IMG/VR virus record: IMGVR_UViG_2663763220_000005
DNA: 37,530 nt
Strand: one strand, 5' to 3'
Source: a virus
Lineage: Duplodnaviria; Heunggongvirae; Uroviricota; Caudoviricetes
Shown here: in pieces, positions 19,405 through 27,612 of the stretch
Position numbering within the stretch: position 1 is the stretch's first letter
How the letters are laid out: each line of letters begins with the position of its first letter
Notes under the pieces: generated by a model
Told to the model about the DNA's origin: nothing
What the model saw: the letters and a program-made list of their open reading frames with translations, nothing else
The model's database searches: none
Translations under genes and position numbers: made by a program

Positions 19405-21138
19405 TTAAAGCGAGCGGATCCCGTAGGACTCAATGTGGTCAGACAGCGTGTCTTCTTTCTCGTACAGCATGGCTCTGCCAACCGCCATAATCAGCGCAAC
19501 TGCACCGTCAATTTTGTTTTCCGCCTGCTCCTTGACAGGCTTCACCACATCATCGTTACCCGGCATGTTTTTGCCGACCACGTTGCCGATACACCAGGTC
19601 ATGATGGGATTGCCGTCATGATGAAAACGTCCCGATTCAATCGCTGCTTCCAGCTCTTTCATCGGATCGGACATATTGGTGAAGTTCTGGACGATAGTGA
19701 CGGGATTCAGGTCTTCATCAGCAAGGTCATGTGAGAGCCCGGTCGCCCCGAAGGGGTCGATGGGTGACTCGCTGACCGGGCTGATTTTGTTCGCCGCTTT
19801 GGCCTCTTCGAGGATGTAGCGATAATCCACCTCTGCACCATCGGTAACGGTCAGGACGCCCATTTCCACCCATTTCTGAAAGCGTTCGGCGGTCCGGCGA
19901 TCTTCAGTTTTCTCGACGCTGTACACCGTGTCATACGGTACCCAGAAACGCGGGGCCACACTGTAGTAATGCGTTTTACCGTCAATCTCACGGGTATAAA
20001 GTCGCGCCATGCTGTTCATATCCAGCTTACGCGCCAGGTCAAAGGCCAGAATGCACGGCTGCCCCTCGAACTGCTCAAGGGTCAGTGATTTATCCTCGCA
20101 GCTCTGCCAGCTCACCAGGTTGAAATACGCCGAACGCGCCGACACCCAGATATTGAGGTGTTTTGTTTTAAAGACGTTTGCCAGACGGGCGTTATTTTTC
20201 GCACGCTGCTGCTGACTTAACAAAAATTCGCGATAAACCGACACGCCAATATTTGGATTGGCTTTTTCCAGCACCTGCGGGTCGGTCCAGTCATCGCCTT
20301 CGTCAACGGTATAGATGATCCCGAACAGTTCATCGTTGGGTACCGAACCGTTGAGCATCTCGATAACTTCCCGCCGCTTGTCGTAGCACGGCCCCTCAAT
20401 GTTGTACCCGGCGGTGGTGATGGCCCACATCAGTGGCTGACGTCGCGCGCCCATCCCGGTAAGCATCGTGGTATAAAGCGCATCGGTGGCGTGCTCGTGA
20501 TATTCATCCACCACGGCACAGTGGGGTGATGAACCATCACCGGGGTTACCGATCAGCGGTTCAAACCGCGCGCCATCCTCCGGACGGTTCATGTTTGAGG
20601 CGTTAACCTCAATCCCGAACGCTTCCGTCAGCATGGGTGTGCGTTTACACATCAGTCGCGCCGGGCGAAAGACTTCCCACGCCTGTTTCTCTGTCGTGGC
20701 ACCGGAATACACTTCCGCGCCAAACTCGTTATCACAGGCAAAACAATACAGGGCAACACCGGCAGAGATTGCCGATTTGCCGTTCTTACGGGGGATTTCG
20801 GTATACACCTCCCTGAAGCGGCGCAGCCGGGAGCCTTTATTGACCCAGCCAAACGCACAGCAGATCACAAAGAGCTGCCACGGTTCCAGTGTGATGGGCA
20901 TCCTCTTGAATGCCCACTCCCCCTTGGTGTGTGGCAACAGCTGAATAAATTTCGCGGCCCGTTCAGCCAGGTCCTTGTCGAAGCGGTAACGAAACGACTT
21001 ACTTTTTTCCGCCATCAGGTCATCAAGATGGCGCTGGCAGGCCTGAATCACAAACTGGCAGGCCACAATCTTTCCGCGCACGACATCACGGGCATACTGA
21101 TTGGCAGCATTTACGTTGGGGTAAGATTTCCGGCTCAT
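19405..21138 (-). CDS. terL: Terminase large subunit
   Basis: 577 aa with an N-terminal ATPase region and C-terminal nuclease region; start overlaps the terS stop. Confidence 0.9.
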
Positions 21139-22548: not shown

Positions 22549-22923
22549 TTATTCCGATCGCTGGAGTTGCTCATGATGATACAGAGCGAGAATCAGGTCA
22601 TAAGACCCTTGCCTGTCTTTGTAACCAGTTTTATCAACCAATTCAGCTTTACTGATTCCGGGTAAATCAAGAATCAGATTCGCAACTTCAATTGCCCTTT
22701 GGTACAACTTACCGCCTTTTTTCTCCCCATGCAGTGGTTTTACATTCTTCAGGTAACCGCTATCCGCCAGGGCGAGAAATGTTGCCCTTGGGCATATCTT
22801 CTTTCTTGACGATTCGCTTTCTGTAACCTCTGCGATAGCTGCATCCCATGCATCACGAGGAGTCATTGAGCTATCAGCCACCAAATGATAAGCGATTAAA
22901 GCAACGTGAGCGTATTGAGACAT
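22549..22923 (-). CDS. Hypothetical cargo protein (about 124 aa) downstream of Rz
   Basis: ORF of moderate GC with a start at the internal Met (MSQYAHVALIAYHLV...); I recognise no family. Confidence 0.45.
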   Translation of the reverse strand: MSQYAHVALIAYHLVADSSMTPRDAWDAAIAEVTESESSRKKICPRATFLALADSGYLKNVKPLHGEKKGGKLYQRAIEVANLILDLPGISKAELVDKTGYKDRQGSYDLILALYHHEQLQRSE

Positions 22924-22961
22924 AATGCATCCATATACAAAAATCTTATGATAAGACTTTT

Positions 22962-23417
22962 CTAATATGAACACTGTGATCTCACATATTCTTGCAGGCC
23001 ATTCAATTGGTTAGTTATGGTTTCGATGCGCTCTCTGAGAACGAAATAATCCCGTTGAGCGGTGTCAGTAAGTCTGGGGCTGGAAGCATCATCCACGCCG
23101 GAGGCGGCGGTGGTTTTATGCTTGTCCGGACAGACTGCTTTGACGTGCAGCCACTTACGACCAGCAGAAACATCAGCACGAAGACTTTCGATAGTCGCGT
23201 TAGCATCAGCAAGCTCCTTTGTGTATCTGGCGTCGAGTTCAGCTACATCATGTTGACGCTTCTGCATGTCAGCGATGATGGATGTGGCTTTGTCGCGCTG
23301 TTCTTTGTAGGTCATGGCGTTATCACGGTAATGATTAACAGCCCATGACAGGCAGACGATGATGCTGATAACCAGAGCGGAGATAATCGCGGTTACTCTA
23401 CTCATTGTTGCCCCCAC
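22962..23417 (-). CDS. Rz i-spanin
   Basis: 151 aa with an N-terminal TM segment and coiled-coil periplasmic domain; the Rz1 ORF is embedded in an alternative frame. Confidence 0.8.
23015..23212 (-). CDS. Rz1 o-spanin (outer-membrane lipoprotein embedded in Rz)
   Basis: 65 aa with signal peptide, lipobox VVSGC and a PPPPP stretch. Confidence 0.75.
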
Positions 23418-23899
23418 AAACAGACTTCACGCTCAATCTCACGGCGAGTCATCAGCCCTTTCCATTGCTTACCGCCAGCGTATGTCCAGCGCCGTAGCTG
23501 ATCACATGCGCCTTTGATATCGCCCTGGTTTATTTTGCGAAGAAGTGTCGATGTTCTGAAATTTCCAGCACCAACGTTGTAAACGAACGAGTAAAGAGCG
23601 CCGCGCGTTGTTTCCGGTATATCGACTTTGATGTACGGGTTAATTTGTCTGGCGACAGTGGCAAGGTCTTTATTCAGGAGGGCTTTGCATTCTGCTTCGG
23701 TATACGTTTTACCGAGCATAATGTCTTTTCCGGTATGCCCGTAACATACAGTCCATACACCAACGATATCTTTATATGGTATGTAGCTGACGCCTTCCAG
23801 ACCATCGTTACCACTTGGGCCAGTGATTAACACAGATGCTATAGCAATAGCCCCGCCACCAATAGCCGCAGCAACGGCTTTTCGTAATGATGGAGGCAT
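23402..23899 (-). CDS. SAR endolysin (lysozyme, phage 21 R-like)
   Basis: 165 aa; N-terminal signal-anchor-release segment ([18 protein letters not shown]) followed by a lysozyme domain. Confidence 0.85.
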
Positions 23900-24114
23900 T
23901 ATTCACCTCTCGCAGCCTTGCGCTTATCTTCTTTAATCTTGAAATAAAGGTTTGTCAGGTACGTCAGCAGGCCAAATACCAGGCTACCCAGCACACCTAT
24001 TGCTGCCCACTGTGAGGGCGTGACTTTATCGAGCAGCTGTAAAAACCAGTAGCCAGCACTGCCTGCGGAGGTGCCGTAGGCAATGCCCGTTGTTAACTTA
24101 TCCATAGATTTCAT
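23899..24114 (-). CDS. Pinholin (phage 21 S-like class II holin) with dual-start motif
   Basis: 71 aa, [26 protein letters not shown]... with two TM segments; Met1-Lys-Ser-Met4 dual start. Confidence 0.85.
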
Positions 24115-24302
24115 AGCCTCACCTCCGCAAATAACGGATGGTGTACACGGTTCGGAACGAAGAGGAAAGGTATAGAAGTTACATTAGCGTAAGGCTTGAA
24201 CATCTATTCAAAAAGAAAAACGCCAGCGATTATTCTGGCGTAGCTGAAAGCATCATACAATTATCAAATACGAAAATTACAAAATCATTAAAACGCATCA
24301 CG

Positions 24303-25043
24303 TTACATCATGTCTTTTTCTAAAAAAAATCTTGATGAATATTGATGGGGAGGAACACCAAAATATCTTCTGAAAACACTCACAAAATATGACGTGTTTT
24401 CATAACCGCATATCTCAGCAACTTTTCCAACAGAATATAAATTGTAGCTTAATAACCTTTCCGCCATCACCATTCGCTCTTCAAGAATTAACTTACTAAA
24501 TGATAAGCCTTCGTGCTTTAATTTTCTTTTTAACAGACTTTCACTCAGATACAGTCTTGAAGATATATCACAAAGTCTCCATGCTGCAGATATATCCGTG
24601 TGAATAATAGCCTTAACTTTACTTCCTAAACTATTAAGACATCCAAATAAAAAACTTTGCACTATTTTCTCTGAAGATAAGATAGCAAGACATGCAAGTG
24701 ATATTTGATTTCTAACAAAATCCACAGTTCTGCCATCACAATTCAAGCATGCAATCAAGTTCTTTAACAATGAAAAATCTTCACATTCCACCATCAAGTA
24801 TGCCGGATAAAACCTTCTTACAGAAAAAGGTGAGAGTGTGTTGCTTTTAAAGAAATCATTAACTGTTTTCTCTTCAACATCTACGATCATTACATGATCT
24901 ATATTTGATGAAAAAAAATCTTTTAAATTGTAATCAATGAGAACAGCACTTCCTTTTTTAAACAAAATATCTTCTTTACCAATTCGGACATCAAACGAGT
25001 TCAACACCAAAATGATAGAACATATGTATGGCATATTATCCAC
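24303..25043 (-). CDS. AraC-family transcriptional regulator (AppY/GadX-like)
   Basis: 246 aa, AT-rich; C-terminal HTH_AraC signature (KVAEICGYENTSYFVSVFRRYFGVPPHQY). Confidence 0.8.
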   Translation of the reverse strand: MDNMPYICSIILVLNSFDVRIGKEDILFKKGSAVLIDYNLKDFFSSNIDHVMIVDVEEKTVNDFFKSNTLSPFSVRRFYPAYLMVECEDFSLLKNLIACLNCDGRTVDFVRNQISLACLAILSSEKIVQSFLFGCLNSLGSKVKAIIHTDISAAWRLCDISSRLYLSESLLKRKLKHEGLSFSKLILEERMVMAERLLSYNLYSVGKVAEICGYENTSYFVSVFRRYFGVPPHQYSSRFFLEKDMM

Positions 25044-25385
25044 CTGATATCATTGGGGTTACACCAGGTAAGTATAGGTGGAAAATCAATATTCGCAAGT
25101 TCAACAATAAGGAAAATTTCATTGCATCACAAGTATAAAATTATGTATTTAACTCACAAAGACAAATTATTAAACCAATCTGTTATATTATATATAGCTG
25201 CGTGGAATCATAATATTATATATTTTGACTGGCATGTTTACCAACTTTAAGTTGCATCTCAATTGTTTCTTCAGCGTAAACAGAGTTTTTATACAAACTG
25301 ACACTCTGGGTATCATAGTGTAGTTTTTACGATTGTAAATATCCTGCATGCAGGAACTCATCCTTTTGGATGATATCGCATACAA

Positions 25386-26345
25386 TTAATTTACCATCAG
25401 TCTTAGAGCCAGTTCGTCCGGATAGGGATCGAAGTAATTCTGTGTAAGCAAGTAATCATTAGGATACTCACCCAGATAATGCTTCAGCAGAGTCAACGGC
25501 GCAAGAAGAGGTAATGTGCCAGAACGATAGTTAAGTATAACCTCGCTCAACTCTTTACGCTGGCGTGTACTTAAGTAGTTACTAAAATACCCCTGTATAT
25601 GCATCAGCACATTCGTGTGATTTTTACGTGATGCAGGTTTTCTGAGAATCGCCATCAGCTTATCACGATACACCTCAAAGTATGATTCAAGGTCCGCCCA
25701 CTCGTGTATTGCAGCCACAAATGGTCCCATATCTTTATAGCCTGCCTGACTATGCGCCAACAACTGAAGCTTATAACGACTATGAAAAGCTAATAACTCT
25801 CTTCTTGATAATTTCTCCTTGTAAAGGTGATTGAGCTCATGCAAAGCAAAAACTCTTTCAACAAAATTCTCACGAAGCACTGGATCATGTAATCGCCCAT
25901 CCTCTTCAACCGGTAGCCAGGAAAACTTTTCCATCAAAGTACTCGTAAATAGTCCCACTCCATCTTTACGACCTCGATTACCATTTTCATCATAGACACG
26001 CACGCGCTCCATGCCACAGCTGGGAGATTTAGCACAAACCACAAACCCCGATACATCCTTTAATTTGTCCATATAAGAACGACTAAACTCTGTCATTCTC
26101 TCTGTCACATCCTCATTCTGGTCGTGGCTGAAACACATCCGTATATTTCCTTGCGTCGAGCGCACAAGACGTAGAGCAGGACGCGGAACTGGCAGCCCTA
26201 TAGCCATTTCCGGACATACTGGTCTGAATGTTACCCATTCCACTAATTTGTCCATTAAAAAGTCAGCTCTTTTGTGACCACCATCAAAACGAACAGCAGA
26301 ACCGGCCAAACAACCGCTGATTCCAATCACAGGTTTTTTTATCAT
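25386..26345 (-). CDS. DUF523 (TudS-like putative Fe-S thiouracil desulfidase) - DUF1722 (YbgA-like) fusion protein
   Basis: 319 aa; N-terminal GISGCLAGSAVRFDGGHK cysteine motif of DUF523, C-terminal half resembling YbgA. Confidence 0.65.
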   Translation of the reverse strand: MIKKPVIGISGCLAGSAVRFDGGHKRADFLMDKLVEWVTFRPVCPEMAIGLPVPRPALRLVRSTQGNIRMCFSHDQNEDVTERMTEFSRSYMDKLKDVSGFVVCAKSPSCGMERVRVYDENGNRGRKDGVGLFTSTLMEKFSWLPVEEDGRLHDPVLRENFVERVFALHELNHLYKEKLSRRELLAFHSRYKLQLLAHSQAGYKDMGPFVAAIHEWADLESYFEVYRDKLMAILRKPASRKNHTNVLMHIQGYFSNYLSTRQRKELSEVILNYRSGTLPLLAPLTLLKHYLGEYPNDYLLTQNYFDPYPDELALRLMVN

Positions 26346-26537
26346 ATTCTCCCCCTTGACTAATTCATTAACACATAAACTGTGTAGTGCACGGAATAAA
26401 TTGCCTTTCTGGCGTCATCACTGACAATTTTTCTGTTATGGACTATTCCTAATATAGTATGAAAGTTCTTTAAGTGATCGGTCGTAATCATCTATCTTTC
26501 ATACTTACTCTCAACTATCAAAAGTACAGGATTTATT

Positions 26538-27062
26538 ATGAAGTTATGGCCTGTGTTGACTGGCATTGCACTCTCTTTCACTCTTATAGCATGTAAGGCC
26601 CCGACACCACCTAAAGGTGTGCAGCCGATTACAAATTTTGACGCCAACCGCTACCTCGGAAAATGGTATGAAATAGCTCGCCTCGAGAACCGGTTCGAAC
26701 GTGATCTGGAACAGGTCAGCGCTACTTATGGAAAACGGAACGACGGAGGGATTCGTGTACTTAACCGTGGATACGATCCAACGAAAAATAAATGGAGCGA
26801 GAGCGAAGGTAAAGCATACTTTACTGGAGATACTAAAACTGCAGCATTGAAGGTTTCGTTTTTTGGCCCCTTCTATGGTGGCTATAATGTAATCAAACTG
26901 GATGATGAGTATAAGTATGCTCTTGTCAGTGGTCCGAACAGAGAATACCTATGGATTCTGGCAAGGACCCCAACTATTCCAGATAAAGTAAAAGCAGACT
27001 ATGTGCGAACCGCTCAAAAGTTGGGATTCAATGTCAATGAATTATTATGGGTTAAACAATAA
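26538..27062 (+). CDS. blc: Bacterial lipocalin Blc (outer-membrane lipoprotein)
   Basis: 174 aa; signal peptide with lipobox LIAC and the lipocalin motifs NFDANRYLGKWYEIARLENRFE and YLWILARTP. Confidence 0.85.
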   Translation: MKLWPVLTGIALSFTLIACKAPTPPKGVQPITNFDANRYLGKWYEIARLENRFERDLEQVSATYGKRNDGGIRVLNRGYDPTKNKWSESEGKAYFTGDTKTAALKVSFFGPFYGGYNVIKLDDEYKYALVSGPNREYLWILARTPTIPDKVKADYVRTAQKLGFNVNELLWVKQ

Positions 27063-27090: not shown

Positions 27091-27117
27091 AAAAAAACCA
27101 GCCTTTGGGGAGGCTGG
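27091..27117 (-). terminator. Rho-independent terminator downstream of Q (tR'-like)
   Basis: Minus-strand CCAGCC-N8-GGCTGG hairpin followed by TTTTTTT, about 100 nt downstream of the Q stop. Confidence 0.6.
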
Positions 27118-27217
27118 CTAAATCAGGAAACAAGCTGTTATATGGTAATAACTACGTTGCGATTCCAACATTTAAAATGTTAGACTAATGACAATCAGAC
27201 AGCAACTTTTCCTTTAA

Positions 27218-27595
27218 TTATTTCGAACAATCAGCATCCATCTCCAATCGGAGATCCAACACCATCAGCATACCCTCCACTACGCCCTCAGCTTTCTGGA
27301 GCATCCTGCCAACCCAACAATCAGATCGCCCATGCTTACGTGCAAGCGCCATAAAAGTCATGCCGCCGACATAATAGTCCACCAATAAATCATGCAAATC
27401 GCTGTTGTTCTTTTTCAGACGGGCCATGCACCCGCAAATGATCATCGCGTCATCGTCACAACATTGTGGGCGAGATTTTACTTTTGAAGGAATTAATCCC
27501 TTAAAACCGGCGGCAATGGACGACCAGGTCACATCTTCATGATTATTAGCCGCCCACGCTCCCCAACGCTCAAGAACCATCTGAATATCACGCAT
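27218..27595 (-). CDS. Q: Late-gene antiterminator Q (QuuD-like)
   Basis: [34 protein letters not shown]... matches the DLP12 QuuD-type Q family as I recall it; GGAG RBS upstream of the ATG at 27595. Confidence 0.85.
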
Positions 27596-27612
27596 CAACT
27601 TTCTCCACAAAA

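Follow-up and report, generated by a model that had tools for sequence, protein, structure and literature searches.

The closest described relatives of the gene studied here are the RudS proteins, which Jamontas et al. (NAR 2024; PMC11417400) named and characterized as [4Fe-4S] desulfidases that convert 4-thiouridine (s4U) in tRNA to uridine in vivo and in vitro. In that work, a RudS is recognized by a TudS domain followed by a DUF1722 domain, each matched at E < 0.001 over more than 80 aligned residues, and DUF1722 is the tRNA-binding module, which binds the anticodon region. All six orthologues assayed, including the phage protein RudS_vir, cut E. coli tRNA s4U by 4.7- to 26-fold, and stand-alone TudS or YbgA produced no decrease. 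RudS_vir was assayed in overexpressed form only, with an activity below that of the Salmonella enzyme RudS_ST at comparable protein levels. The biochemical prototype, RudS_KT of Pseudomonas putida (PP_0741), bound tRNA as a purified protein and removed ~80-95% of its s4U in vitro; its Cys, Glu and Ser mutants were inactive, its Y25F variant was as active as wild type, Ser243 and Arg244 were tRNA-contact residues in its DUF1722 domain, and the oxygen-labile cluster was seen spectroscopically for this enzyme only. Growth delay after UVA fell from ~105 to ~60 min with RudS_KT, a phenotype shown with the Pseudomonas enzyme and not with phage RudS, and its overexpression left two tRNA species ~2-fold lower (PMC11417400). 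In Vibrio cholerae, loss of s4U leads to degradosome decay of tRNA-Tyr and tRNA-Ser (PMC11417400; PMC13602947). Viral RudS had previously been reported in Siphoviridae only (PMC11417400), and recent literature, including a 2026 review, states that E. coli is without RudS (PMC13602947).

Each half of RudS has a single-domain relative. TudS (PDB 6Z92/6ZW9) has the catalytic fold and the three-Cys [4Fe-4S] site in common with RudS; it consists of one domain (~150-166 aa) and acts on free thiouracil and 4-thio-UMP, whereas the protein described here has the additional DUF1722. E. coli K-12 YbgA (b0707) is a stand-alone DUF1722 protein homologous to the C-terminal half of RudS, without the catalytic domain.

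The window analyzed here, that is, the whole stretch of 37,530 nucleotides in IMG/VR record IMGVR_UViG_2663763220_000005 (Caudoviricetes), contains a prophage in which modules for head, tail, replication and immunity are present. An initial annotation made from the sequence alone had placed a phage-borne DUF523 (TudS-like)-DUF1722 fusion with cluster-binding cysteines at 25386-26345. The open reading frame exists exactly as described: it runs on the minus strand from an ATG start, with the stop codon included in its coordinates, encodes 319 aa with the N-terminus MIKKPVIGISGCLAGSAVRFDGGHK, and is preceded by a strong Shine-Dalgarno sequence, GGGGGAG, 5 nt 5' of the ATG. The gene, referred to below as rudS, and its neighbors are as follows, in the direction of late transcription.

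27218..27610, minus strand: late-gene antiterminator Q (Pfam Phage_antitermQ, E 2.5e-51)
27096..27119, minus strand: tR'-like intrinsic terminator, ~100 nt 3' of the Q stop (stem AGCCAGCCT...AGGCTGGTT, then T7)
26538..27062, plus strand: blc, outer-membrane lipocalin lipoprotein (Pfam Lipocalin_2, E 1e-43)
26346..26537, no strand: AT-rich rudS-blc divergent intergenic region of 192 bp, holding the rudS ribosome-binding site
25386..26345, minus strand: rudS
25899..26327, minus strand: TudS/DUF523 catalytic domain of RudS, aa 7-149 (full Pfam profile)
25419..25772, minus strand: DUF1722 helical domain of RudS, aa 192-309 (full Pfam profile; all-helical in the AlphaFold2 model)
24303..25043, minus strand: AraC/XylS-family regulator (YdeO/GadX-like), 31.8% GC, 3' of rudS (profile matches)
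24220..24241, minus strand: second hairpin resembling a terminator, located after the AraC-like gene and before the holin gene (terminator scan)
23899..24114, minus strand: P21-type class II holin (essD-like), which opens the lysis genes and bounds the cassette on its downstream side (Pfam Phage_holin_2_1, E 2e-35)

The gene order is therefore Q, tR'-like terminator, blc on the opposite strand, rudS, AraC-like regulator, terminator and holin S, with lysozyme and Rz after the holin; the phage-borne character proposed for the gene is borne out by this position inside the prophage. The cassette has a GC content of 38.1%, compared to 50.0% for the whole window, and its position between Q/tR' and the holin together with this atypical GC marks it as a Q-S moron. 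Lambdoid Q-S morons at the stx position likewise carry cargo of foreign GC after pR'/tR' and before the holin, where it is transcribed together with the late genes upon induction; the cargo here differs in that it comprises a tRNA-modification eraser, a lipocalin and a regulator, with no toxin, and in the antisense orientation of blc relative to late transcription. The tR'-like hairpin recurs without any change in 67 of 81 related phage loci, and its position suggests that it is the late terminator antiterminated by Q, the start of which, by the RefSeq annotation of a near-identical locus, is equivalent to 27595. The hairpin in front of the holin gene recurs exactly or with at most three substitutions in 60 of the 81 loci. 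The Blc protein scores 314.5 bits against the NCBIfam Blc subfamily model (cut-off 267), and blc, transcribed divergently from rudS, has a dN/dS of 0.07.

A weak sigma-70-like candidate site for rudS (TTGAGA-16-GATGAT, minus strand, 26514..26487, 9/12 match) lies in the divergent intergenic region; promoter-like sites in the region scanned are not enriched relative to shuffled sequence (14 found, 10.4 +/- 2.6 expected). The 342 bp spacer between rudS and the AraC-like gene has two strong promoter-like sites, 25339..25312 and 25244..25215, with 10/12 matches each. The AraC-like protein belongs to phrog_1450 and shares 54% identity with ECs_0287 from the Sakai prophage Sp1. Neither an RNA family nor a tRNA gene was detected when the whole window was scanned at Rfam gathering thresholds and with ARAGORN, so the cassette is without a tRNA that might relate to RudS. 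A literature search on DUF1722/YbgA, lipocalin and prophage returned no relevant publication on the cassette as a unit; the phiv142-3 paper deals with other genes (PMC7724020).

Profile searches recovered both halves of the proposed fusion at full length, and both matches are far above chance. PF04463 ("2-thiouracil desulfurase", formerly DUF523) covers residues 7-149 with profile positions 1-141 of 141 (E 3.1e-40; 137.9 bits, Pfam cut-off 34.7), and PF08349 (DUF1722) covers residues 192-309 with positions 1-117 of 117 (E 1.9e-40; 138.2 bits, cut-off 22.5), in the two-domain order published for RudS. By this architecture, the gene is a member of the RudS family, a DUF523-DUF1722 fusion and predicted tRNA 4-thiouridine desulfidase. 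Two single-domain identities were rejected. A stand-alone TudS does not correspond to a protein of 319 aa with a full DUF1722, and the NCBIfam TudS-related model scored only 18.3 bits, for a cut-off of 130. The YbgA equivalog NF007549 (E 1.4e-56) stayed below its cut-off, with 190.8 of 237 bits, and matched residues 160-315 only. The phage protein is named "YbgA family protein" in RefSeq, and its full-length PHROG family is phrog_3275.

Five cysteines are present in RudS, at positions 12, 44, 71, 104 and 110. C12, C44, C104 and C110 are invariant across 60 phage and enterobacterial homologues, and C71 is variable. In a phmmer search of the PDB, TudS was the sole sequence match, with C12 and C44 aligned to the cluster ligands C10 and C43 of 6Z92. 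Cys12/44/110 are the positions given for the phage 1H12 and Salmonella proteins in Table 1 of PMC11417400, and Cys12, Cys44 and Cys110 are the predicted [4Fe-4S] ligands of the protein in the window, which bears out the cluster-binding cysteines of the initial annotation. The residues invariant in the 60 homologues also include R19, F20, D21, E46, R55, S107, S109, S239 and R240. Counting offsets from the ligand cysteines, with no direct alignment, places E46 (Cys2+2), R55 (Cys2+11), S107 (Cys3-3) and S109 (Cys3-1) at positions required in RudS_KT, where the corresponding residues are Glu51, Arg60, Ser111 and Ser113; R19 corresponds to Arg24, Phe20 to Tyr25 and Asp21 to Asn26. S239 and R240 differ by four positions from the tRNA-contact residues Ser243 and Arg244, which is the offset expected, a mapping by position and not by alignment. 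The AlphaFold2 model, built from a 26-sequence alignment, has a mean pLDDT of 65.7 and a pTM of 0.67, with pLDDT below 50 in the active-site and cluster-binding loops (around residues 12-30 and 106-109), and cluster geometry is not readable from it. Its only credible PDB fold match is TudS 6zw9_A (probability 1.00, TM 0.57 on target); a search with the same model found no similar fold in the PDB for the DUF1722 half.

The nearest relative with measured activity is RudS_vir itself (gp66, YP_009909557.1; Escherichia phage 1H12, NC_049947), which is likewise 319 aa long and 93% identical to the protein in the window, with 21 substitutions, no gaps and the same Cys12/44/110. On such close homology, the molecular function would appear settled, and of the roles offered in the initial annotation, alteration of s4U in tRNA names the right activity; the accompanying statement that no role was established is out of date, as RudS de-modification of tRNA s4U has been shown with the phage copy included (PMC11417400). 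Phage 1H12 has the same Q-blc-rudS-AraC-holin cassette at 90% nucleotide identity, with the AraC-like neighbor only 82.5% identical. The phages themselves differ, as 1H12 is a lambda-like siphovirus (Jouyvirus) and the prophage in the window has contractile-tail genes (sheath, tube, baseplate J/gp46/V). The two rudS alleles differ at 7.8% of nucleotides with a dN/dS of 0.10; the gene is under purifying selection, and the DUF1722 domain is retained at full length under that selection.

The best 120 homologues of RudS are all from Enterobacterales and do not include RudS_KT. Chromosomal copies in Enterobacteriaceae (Citrobacter, Enterobacter and others, Enterobacter cloacae being one example) are 66-77% identical to the protein in the window at 318-319 aa, and RudS_ST (Salmonella LT2 STM1389, ORF319) has its Cys positions as in the window protein. 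In more than 40 chromosomal loci, blc lies divergently less than 2 kb upstream of rudS, with blc homologues 76-81% identical. Chromosomal rudS genes stand beside a MerR/MlrA-type regulator, which is absent from the phage cassette, and in Enterobacter also beside a transthyretin-like gene; conversely, the AraC-like gene was absent beside the chromosomal copies examined. This MerR and blc neighborhood fits the light/stress-regulon context of PMC11417400, and the prototype RudS_KT, which has the same two-domain architecture as the protein in the window, lies in a LitR/photolyase light-inducible operon of a kind absent around rudS here. GC content is 47-62% for chromosomal rudS and 43% for phage rudS. 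Relative to the chromosomal copies, the phage copy has lost the MerR gene, gained the AraC-like gene and come to lie in a Q-dependent late operon. As blc often accompanies rudS in the nearest chromosomal relatives, both genes were probably acquired as a unit. Chromosomal copies reach at most 77% identity and dS is saturated, which does not allow a donor species to be named. When the blc-rudS intergenic region was compared with Citrobacter loci for a co-captured promoter, only the blc 5' end aligned convincingly (C. sedlakii).

The initial annotation considered this cargo unusual for a phage, which holds across phages generally, with full-length rudS in 12 of 50,697 phage records (12 sequenced coliphages), and fails for E. 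coli prophages, in which the cassette is very common. Of 5426 complete E. coli genomes, 1064 (19.6%) contain the gene with at least 80% of its length covered, and it is present in at least 127 IMG/VR viral contigs. In each of the 80 viral contigs examined, the reading frame is complete and uninterrupted, and at least 73 of these have all five of Q, blc, rudS, the AraC-like gene and the holin in this order. The BL21 copy is disrupted by IS3.

The best explanation overall, to which we give a probability of roughly 0.85, is that the gene encodes a RudS tRNA eraser carried on a low-GC Q-S moron, with lower host s4U as the most likely pay-off. The TudS domain would hold a [4Fe-4S] cluster on Cys12/Cys44/Cys110, the fourth, free iron of which would bind the s4U sulfur, and Glu46 with Ser107/Ser109 would complete hydrolytic desulfuration to uridine; DUF1722 would dock the enzyme on tRNA, the substrate being s4U at position 8 and not free thiouracil. 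The blc-rudS pair and the AraC-like regulator would form a low-GC moron in an E. coli prophage under lambdoid regulation. As rudS lies between the Q terminator and the lysis genes, all Q-modified late transcripts would cross it on their way to the holin gene, and RudS is expected to be expressed after induction. No light-responsive control of the phage gene is expected, since the cassette is without the MerR-type regulator of the chromosomal copies. Lower s4U in host tRNA would mean fewer near-UV s4U8-C13 cross-links, so that growth would be delayed for less time and the stringent response would be weaker, and the beneficiary would be either a lysogen in sunlight or the phage as it makes late proteins in an irradiated cell under SOS induction. 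Our best guess for the role in phage or lysogen is a presumed protection of translation against near-UV cross-linking of tRNA. E. coli lives mostly in the gut, where it rarely meets near-UV light, which counts against a UV pay-off.

Other roles for the same protein were weighed against this reading. The catalytic domain of RudS is a TudS domain, RudS_vir had the shortest 4-thiouracil lag of the RudS proteins tested in a uracil-auxotroph assay (PMC11417400), and TudS enzymes are reported to recycle 4-thio-UMP (PMC10611767), all of which would suit an enzyme of salvage or detoxification that really acts on thiolated bases or nucleotides in free form (4-thiouracil, or 4-thio-UMP from tRNA turnover) and not on tRNA. 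We regard this as improbable, as thiouracils did not sustain growth with any RudS as they did with TudS and were judged by the authors not to be the primary substrates, and tRNA s4U was lowered by all RudS proteins, RudS_vir included, and not by stand-alone TudS (PMC11417400); the retention of a complete tRNA-binding DUF1722 under purifying selection also argues against it.

Erasure of s4U8 might instead serve the phage by altering host tRNA stability or recognition, either evading a tRNA-targeting defense or reprogramming translation during lytic growth. The location of rudS inside a Q-dependent late transcription unit is compatible with such a takeover, and removal of s4U can change tRNA pools, given that overexpressed RudS_KT lowers two tRNA species and that Vibrio cholerae degrades tRNA-Tyr and tRNA-Ser once s4U is lost. 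We nevertheless hold it to be very improbable, and the suggestion in the initial annotation that the enzyme counters a host defense found no support: RudS, Blc and the AraC-like protein matched no PADLOC family at E <= 0.01, we know of no s4U-dependent defense system, phage tRNA genes that could offset a loss of tRNA are absent from the window, and the closest relatives are chromosomal genes of Enterobacteriaceae with ordinary housekeeping or stress roles. It is also highly unlikely that rudS travels as a passenger, without a selected phage function and kept only by linkage to blc or to the AraC-like gene as the true determinants of lysogenic conversion, even though both neighbors have plausible functions in a lysogen (blc as an envelope lipoprotein, the AraC-like gene as a PatE/YdeO-like regulator of acid resistance) and the loss of rudS to IS3 in BL21 had no obvious harm. 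The low dN/dS between diverged phage alleles, the intact reading frames in viral contigs, the coverage of the gene in more than a thousand genomes and the retention of all catalytic residues speak against neutral carriage.

In total, the RudS family, its chemistry and a phage orthologue were already known from published work, and the protein is routinely annotated; as a discovery, the locus therefore carries little weight, and the points that remain are of modest value. The presence of prophage RudS in 19.6% of complete E. coli genomes stands against the literature statement that the species has none, and because of this frequency the choice of strain could confound studies of s4U and UVA. The conserved pairing of blc and rudS, chromosomal and phage alike, hints at a shared stress function of the lipocalin and the eraser. 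With rudS placed in the late operon, a connection of prophage induction to tRNA de-modification becomes open to testing. Going beyond the tRNA-eraser reading, prophage rudS may be, in place of a relocated housekeeping gene, a UV-coupled phage function in which induction by UV and the SOS response switches on s4U erasure via the Q transcript, a possibility that we put forward tentatively and consider rather doubtful. If it is true, tRNA cross-linking and stringent shutdown would be averted in the irradiated host so that late proteins are made, and prophage induction would act as the UV sensor in place of the MerR/LitR light control of chromosomal copies. As a weaker corollary, the roughly one in five E. 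coli strains with RudS should differ from others in tRNA s4U dynamics and in near-UV growth delay.

The gene rudS lies at 25386..26345 (-) as a single open reading frame of 319 aa with an ATG start and a ribosome-binding site (GGGGGAG) just 5' of it, and the coordinates and N-terminus quoted in the initial annotation both match the ORF listing. The DUF523-DUF1722 fusion proposed there was confirmed by a Pfam search that matched both domains over the full profile length, with PF04463 ("2-thiouracil desulfurase", formerly DUF523) covering residues 7-149 (profile 1-141/141, E 3.1e-40) and PF08349 (DUF1722) covering residues 192-309 (profile 1-117/117, E 1.9e-40). TudS 6Z92 is the sole PDB sequence match to the protein (E 2e-4), and Cys12 and Cys44 align with its cluster ligands Cys10 and Cys43. 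The proposed identity therefore stands; the novelty attached to it is outdated, as TudS-DUF1722 fusions were given the name RudS by Jamontas et al. (Nucleic Acids Res. 2024, PMC11417400).

In that study (PMC11417400), RudS enzymes removed the 4-thiouridine (s4U) modification of tRNA. When six orthologues were overexpressed in E. coli, tRNA s4U fell 4.7- to 26-fold; stand-alone TudS and E. coli YbgA (DUF1722 alone) left it unaffected. The Pseudomonas putida prototype, RudS_KT, lost activity when the three cluster cysteines were mutated, or when Glu51, Ser111, Ser113 or Arg60 was; the purified enzyme bound tRNA and removed ~80-95% of s4U in vitro, and with RudS_KT the growth delay that UVA causes in E. 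coli fell from ~105 to ~60 min. One of the six, RudS_vir, is gp66 of Escherichia phage 1H12 (NC_049947), for which Cys12, Cys44 and Cys110 are listed. It lowered tRNA s4U, but not as far as the Salmonella enzyme when protein levels were comparable, and of the RudS proteins it allowed growth on 4-thiouracil after the shortest lag (PMC11417400). The window protein is 93% identical to RudS_vir, with all 319 residues aligned and no gaps. Since the family and its chemistry have been published, along with a near-identical phage orthologue, the window rudS is an already-known enzyme, carried on a widespread prophage cassette.

The 60 phage and enterobacterial homologues compared all retain C12, R19, F20, D21, C44, E46, R55, C104, S107, S109, C110, S239 and R240. 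By offsets counted from the ligand cysteines, the RudS_KT residues that matter (Glu51, Arg60, Ser111/113, Arg24, Tyr25 and Ser243/Arg244) have their counterparts among these positions; Tyr25 is replaced by Phe in the window protein, and the Y25F mutant of RudS_KT is fully active (PMC11417400). The window and 1H12 alleles share 92.2% nucleotide identity with a dN/dS of 0.10, indicating purifying selection on rudS among phages. AlphaFold2 gave only a moderate model from a 26-sequence alignment (mean pLDDT 65.7, pTM 0.67, cluster loops <50), for which TudS 6zw9_A was the one credible match in the PDB (probability 1.00, 140 columns, TM 0.57 on target); the same search found no solved relative of the helical DUF1722 half.

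The window is a prophage, 97-99.9% identical to that of E. coli WP8-S18-ESBL-07, and its modules and cassette elements are arranged as follows.

680-3482 (+): module of gtrA/gtrB/gtr-type O-antigen genes
about 3700-21100: module of tail fibre, baseplate, sheath/tube, head and terminase genes
22549-24114: lysis module (DUF6979, Rz, lysozyme, P21-type holin)
24241-24220 (-): second terminator-like hairpin, between the AraC-family and holin genes
24303-25043 (-): AraC-family gene, 3' of rudS
25339..25312 and 25244..25215: two strong promoter-like sites in the 342-bp spacer between rudS and the AraC-family gene
25386..26345 (-): rudS
192 bp between rudS and blc: AT-rich spacer
26538-27062 (+): blc, encoding an outer-membrane lipocalin, on the strand opposite to the rest of the cassette
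27119-27096 (-): terminator-like hairpin with a T7 tail, about 100 nt 3' of the Q stop, the position expected for tR'
27218-27610 (-): Q, stop codon at 27218, first in cassette transcription order
beyond Q: module of DUF968, KilA-N, RusA, PerC-like, replication and cro/cI genes

The Q-to-holin cassette spans 3.1 kb at 38.1% GC, compared to 50.0% for the whole window, and both hairpins are kept in most related loci. Read along the minus strand, the order is Q, hairpin, blc (opposite), spacer, rudS, spacer, AraC-family gene, hairpin and holin gene, and from this layout we infer that any Q-antiterminated late transcript would cross rudS ahead of the lysis and structural genes. Only one candidate rudS-proximal promoter was found, a weak one, and promoter-like sites in the cassette region did not exceed shuffled expectation in a promoter scan.

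Elsewhere in the prophage, the 680-3482 (+) module adjoins the tail-fibre genes and consists of three genes of low GC (33-41%), encoding a GtrA-like protein (PF04138), a GtrB-like family-2 glycosyltransferase and a protein of 506 aa that has no Pfam match and is presumably the serotype-specific Gtr; the module resembles a moron for O-antigen glucosylation (serotype conversion). At 30801-31295 (-), the early/replication region encodes a PerC-family transcriptional activator domain (PF06069, E 8e-9), potentially another host-directed regulator. The WP8-S18-ESBL-07 prophage carries an IS421 insertion, and its tail-sheath gene contains an internal stop (L001 3976-6106 and 8701-10197); as the window counterpart (9824-9847 and 12442-13938) has no IS and an intact sheath ORF of 498 aa, the window prophage looks the less degraded.

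The AraC/XylS-family gene at 24303-25043 (-) is very AT-rich (31.8% GC) and evolves faster than its neighbours (dN/dS 0.28). Its product has YdeO as best NCBIfam match (E 7e-37, below cut-off) and is 54% identical to ECs_0287 of the O157 Sakai prophage Sp1, which we take to be PatE (z0321, OI-8). The regulator is probably a member of the PatE/PsrA/PsrB group, prophage-encoded activators of the GAD acid-resistance genes.

Phage rudS sequences form a clade of 93-100% identity, separated by a clear gap from their nearest non-phage relatives, which among the matches listed are 66-77% identical and lie on the chromosomes of Citrobacter, Kluyvera, Enterobacter, Klebsiella, Pectobacterium, Serratia and Salmonella. 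In more than 40 chromosomal loci (including L009 5292-5813 and L028 4024-4545), a divergently oriented blc homologue, 76-81% identical to phage Blc, lies within 2 kb of rudS. The two genes are directly adjacent in Citrobacter sedlakii, as in the phage cassette, whereas in Enterobacter cloacae they are separated by two genes, one for a MerR/MlrA-type regulator and one transthyretin-like. The AraC-like gene was absent from all chromosomal rudS loci examined. We infer that blc and rudS were acquired together, leaving the MerR regulator behind, and that the AraC-like gene, at 31.8% GC, joined separately; saturation of dS against the chromosomal genes prevents the naming of a donor. The shared neighbourhood in chromosomes and phage suggests that the lipocalin and the tRNA eraser belong to a common stress regulon.

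Of 5426 complete E. coli genomes, 1064 (19.6%) carry rudS at ≥80% of length and ≥90% identity, nearly always chromosomal and single-copy, and 979 of these genomes have the entire Q-to-holin segment. Full-length copies occur in 12 sequenced coliphages (IdasGreatGrand, 99.7%; 1H12/Lambda_ev group, 93.4%), and near-identical proteins on at least 127 IMG/VR contigs, with the order Q, blc, rudS, AraC-like gene, holin complete in at least 73 of the 80 contigs kept. The protein's full-length PHROGs family, phrog_3275, is labelled "unknown function", and its protein-collection cluster at 90% identity has 2556 member sequences. The cargo, initially called unusual, is by these counts common among E. coli prophages, though rare across phages as a whole. 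Pieces 94-100% identical to the cassette (Q, blc, rudS, AraC-like gene, holin) on two short contigs (L055, L060) of the Saccharibacteria MAG 'Candidatus Nanosynbacter sp.' D148_maxbin.008 almost certainly reflect mis-binning or contamination rather than a real host, and a 403-aa E. coli protein (P0002, a single-member cluster from a single contig), in which 92% of RudS is fused to a GGDEF domain (PF00990), probably stems from an error of assembly or gene calling.

Viral RudS has been described as 'all within the Siphoviridae' (PMC11417400), which needs qualifying, since the window prophage has contractile-tail and baseplate genes. The host of the expression and UVA tests in that study was BL21(DE3) (PMC11417400). 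In BL21 (L068, NZ_CP053601.1, 2808-4147), a defective prophage retains a cassette remnant with Q and blc intact and only about the first 49 codons of rudS, cut off by an IS3 element, so that the strain is effectively RudS-null.

The molecular mechanism of the window enzyme follows from the family (PMC11417400): three cysteines would hold a [4Fe-4S] cluster whose free iron binds the thiocarbonyl sulfur, Glu and Ser residues would assist hydrolysis to uridine, and DUF1722 would dock on the anticodon region, making tRNA s4U8 the substrate. Our preferred reading of the phage role is protection from near-UV tRNA cross-linking, in which s4U erasure would limit s4U8-C13 cross-links and hence translation arrest and the stringent response, to the benefit of a lysogen in sunlight or of late phage protein synthesis in a UV-induced cell. 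Salvage of thiouracil or 4-thio-UMP is a weaker explanation because auxotrophs expressing RudS grew poorly on thiouracils (PMC11417400). Counter-defence and manipulation of the tRNA pool are likewise weaker, as the cassette proteins had no defence-family match and the window has no phage tRNA genes, and the strong purifying selection on rudS argues against a neutral passenger.

This prophage leaves a testable hypothesis of induction-coupled tRNA de-modification, together with a correction: E. coli has been described as lacking RudS in both the RudS paper (PMC11417400) and a 2026 review (PMC13602947), which is true of K-12 but not of about one-fifth of sequenced strains.
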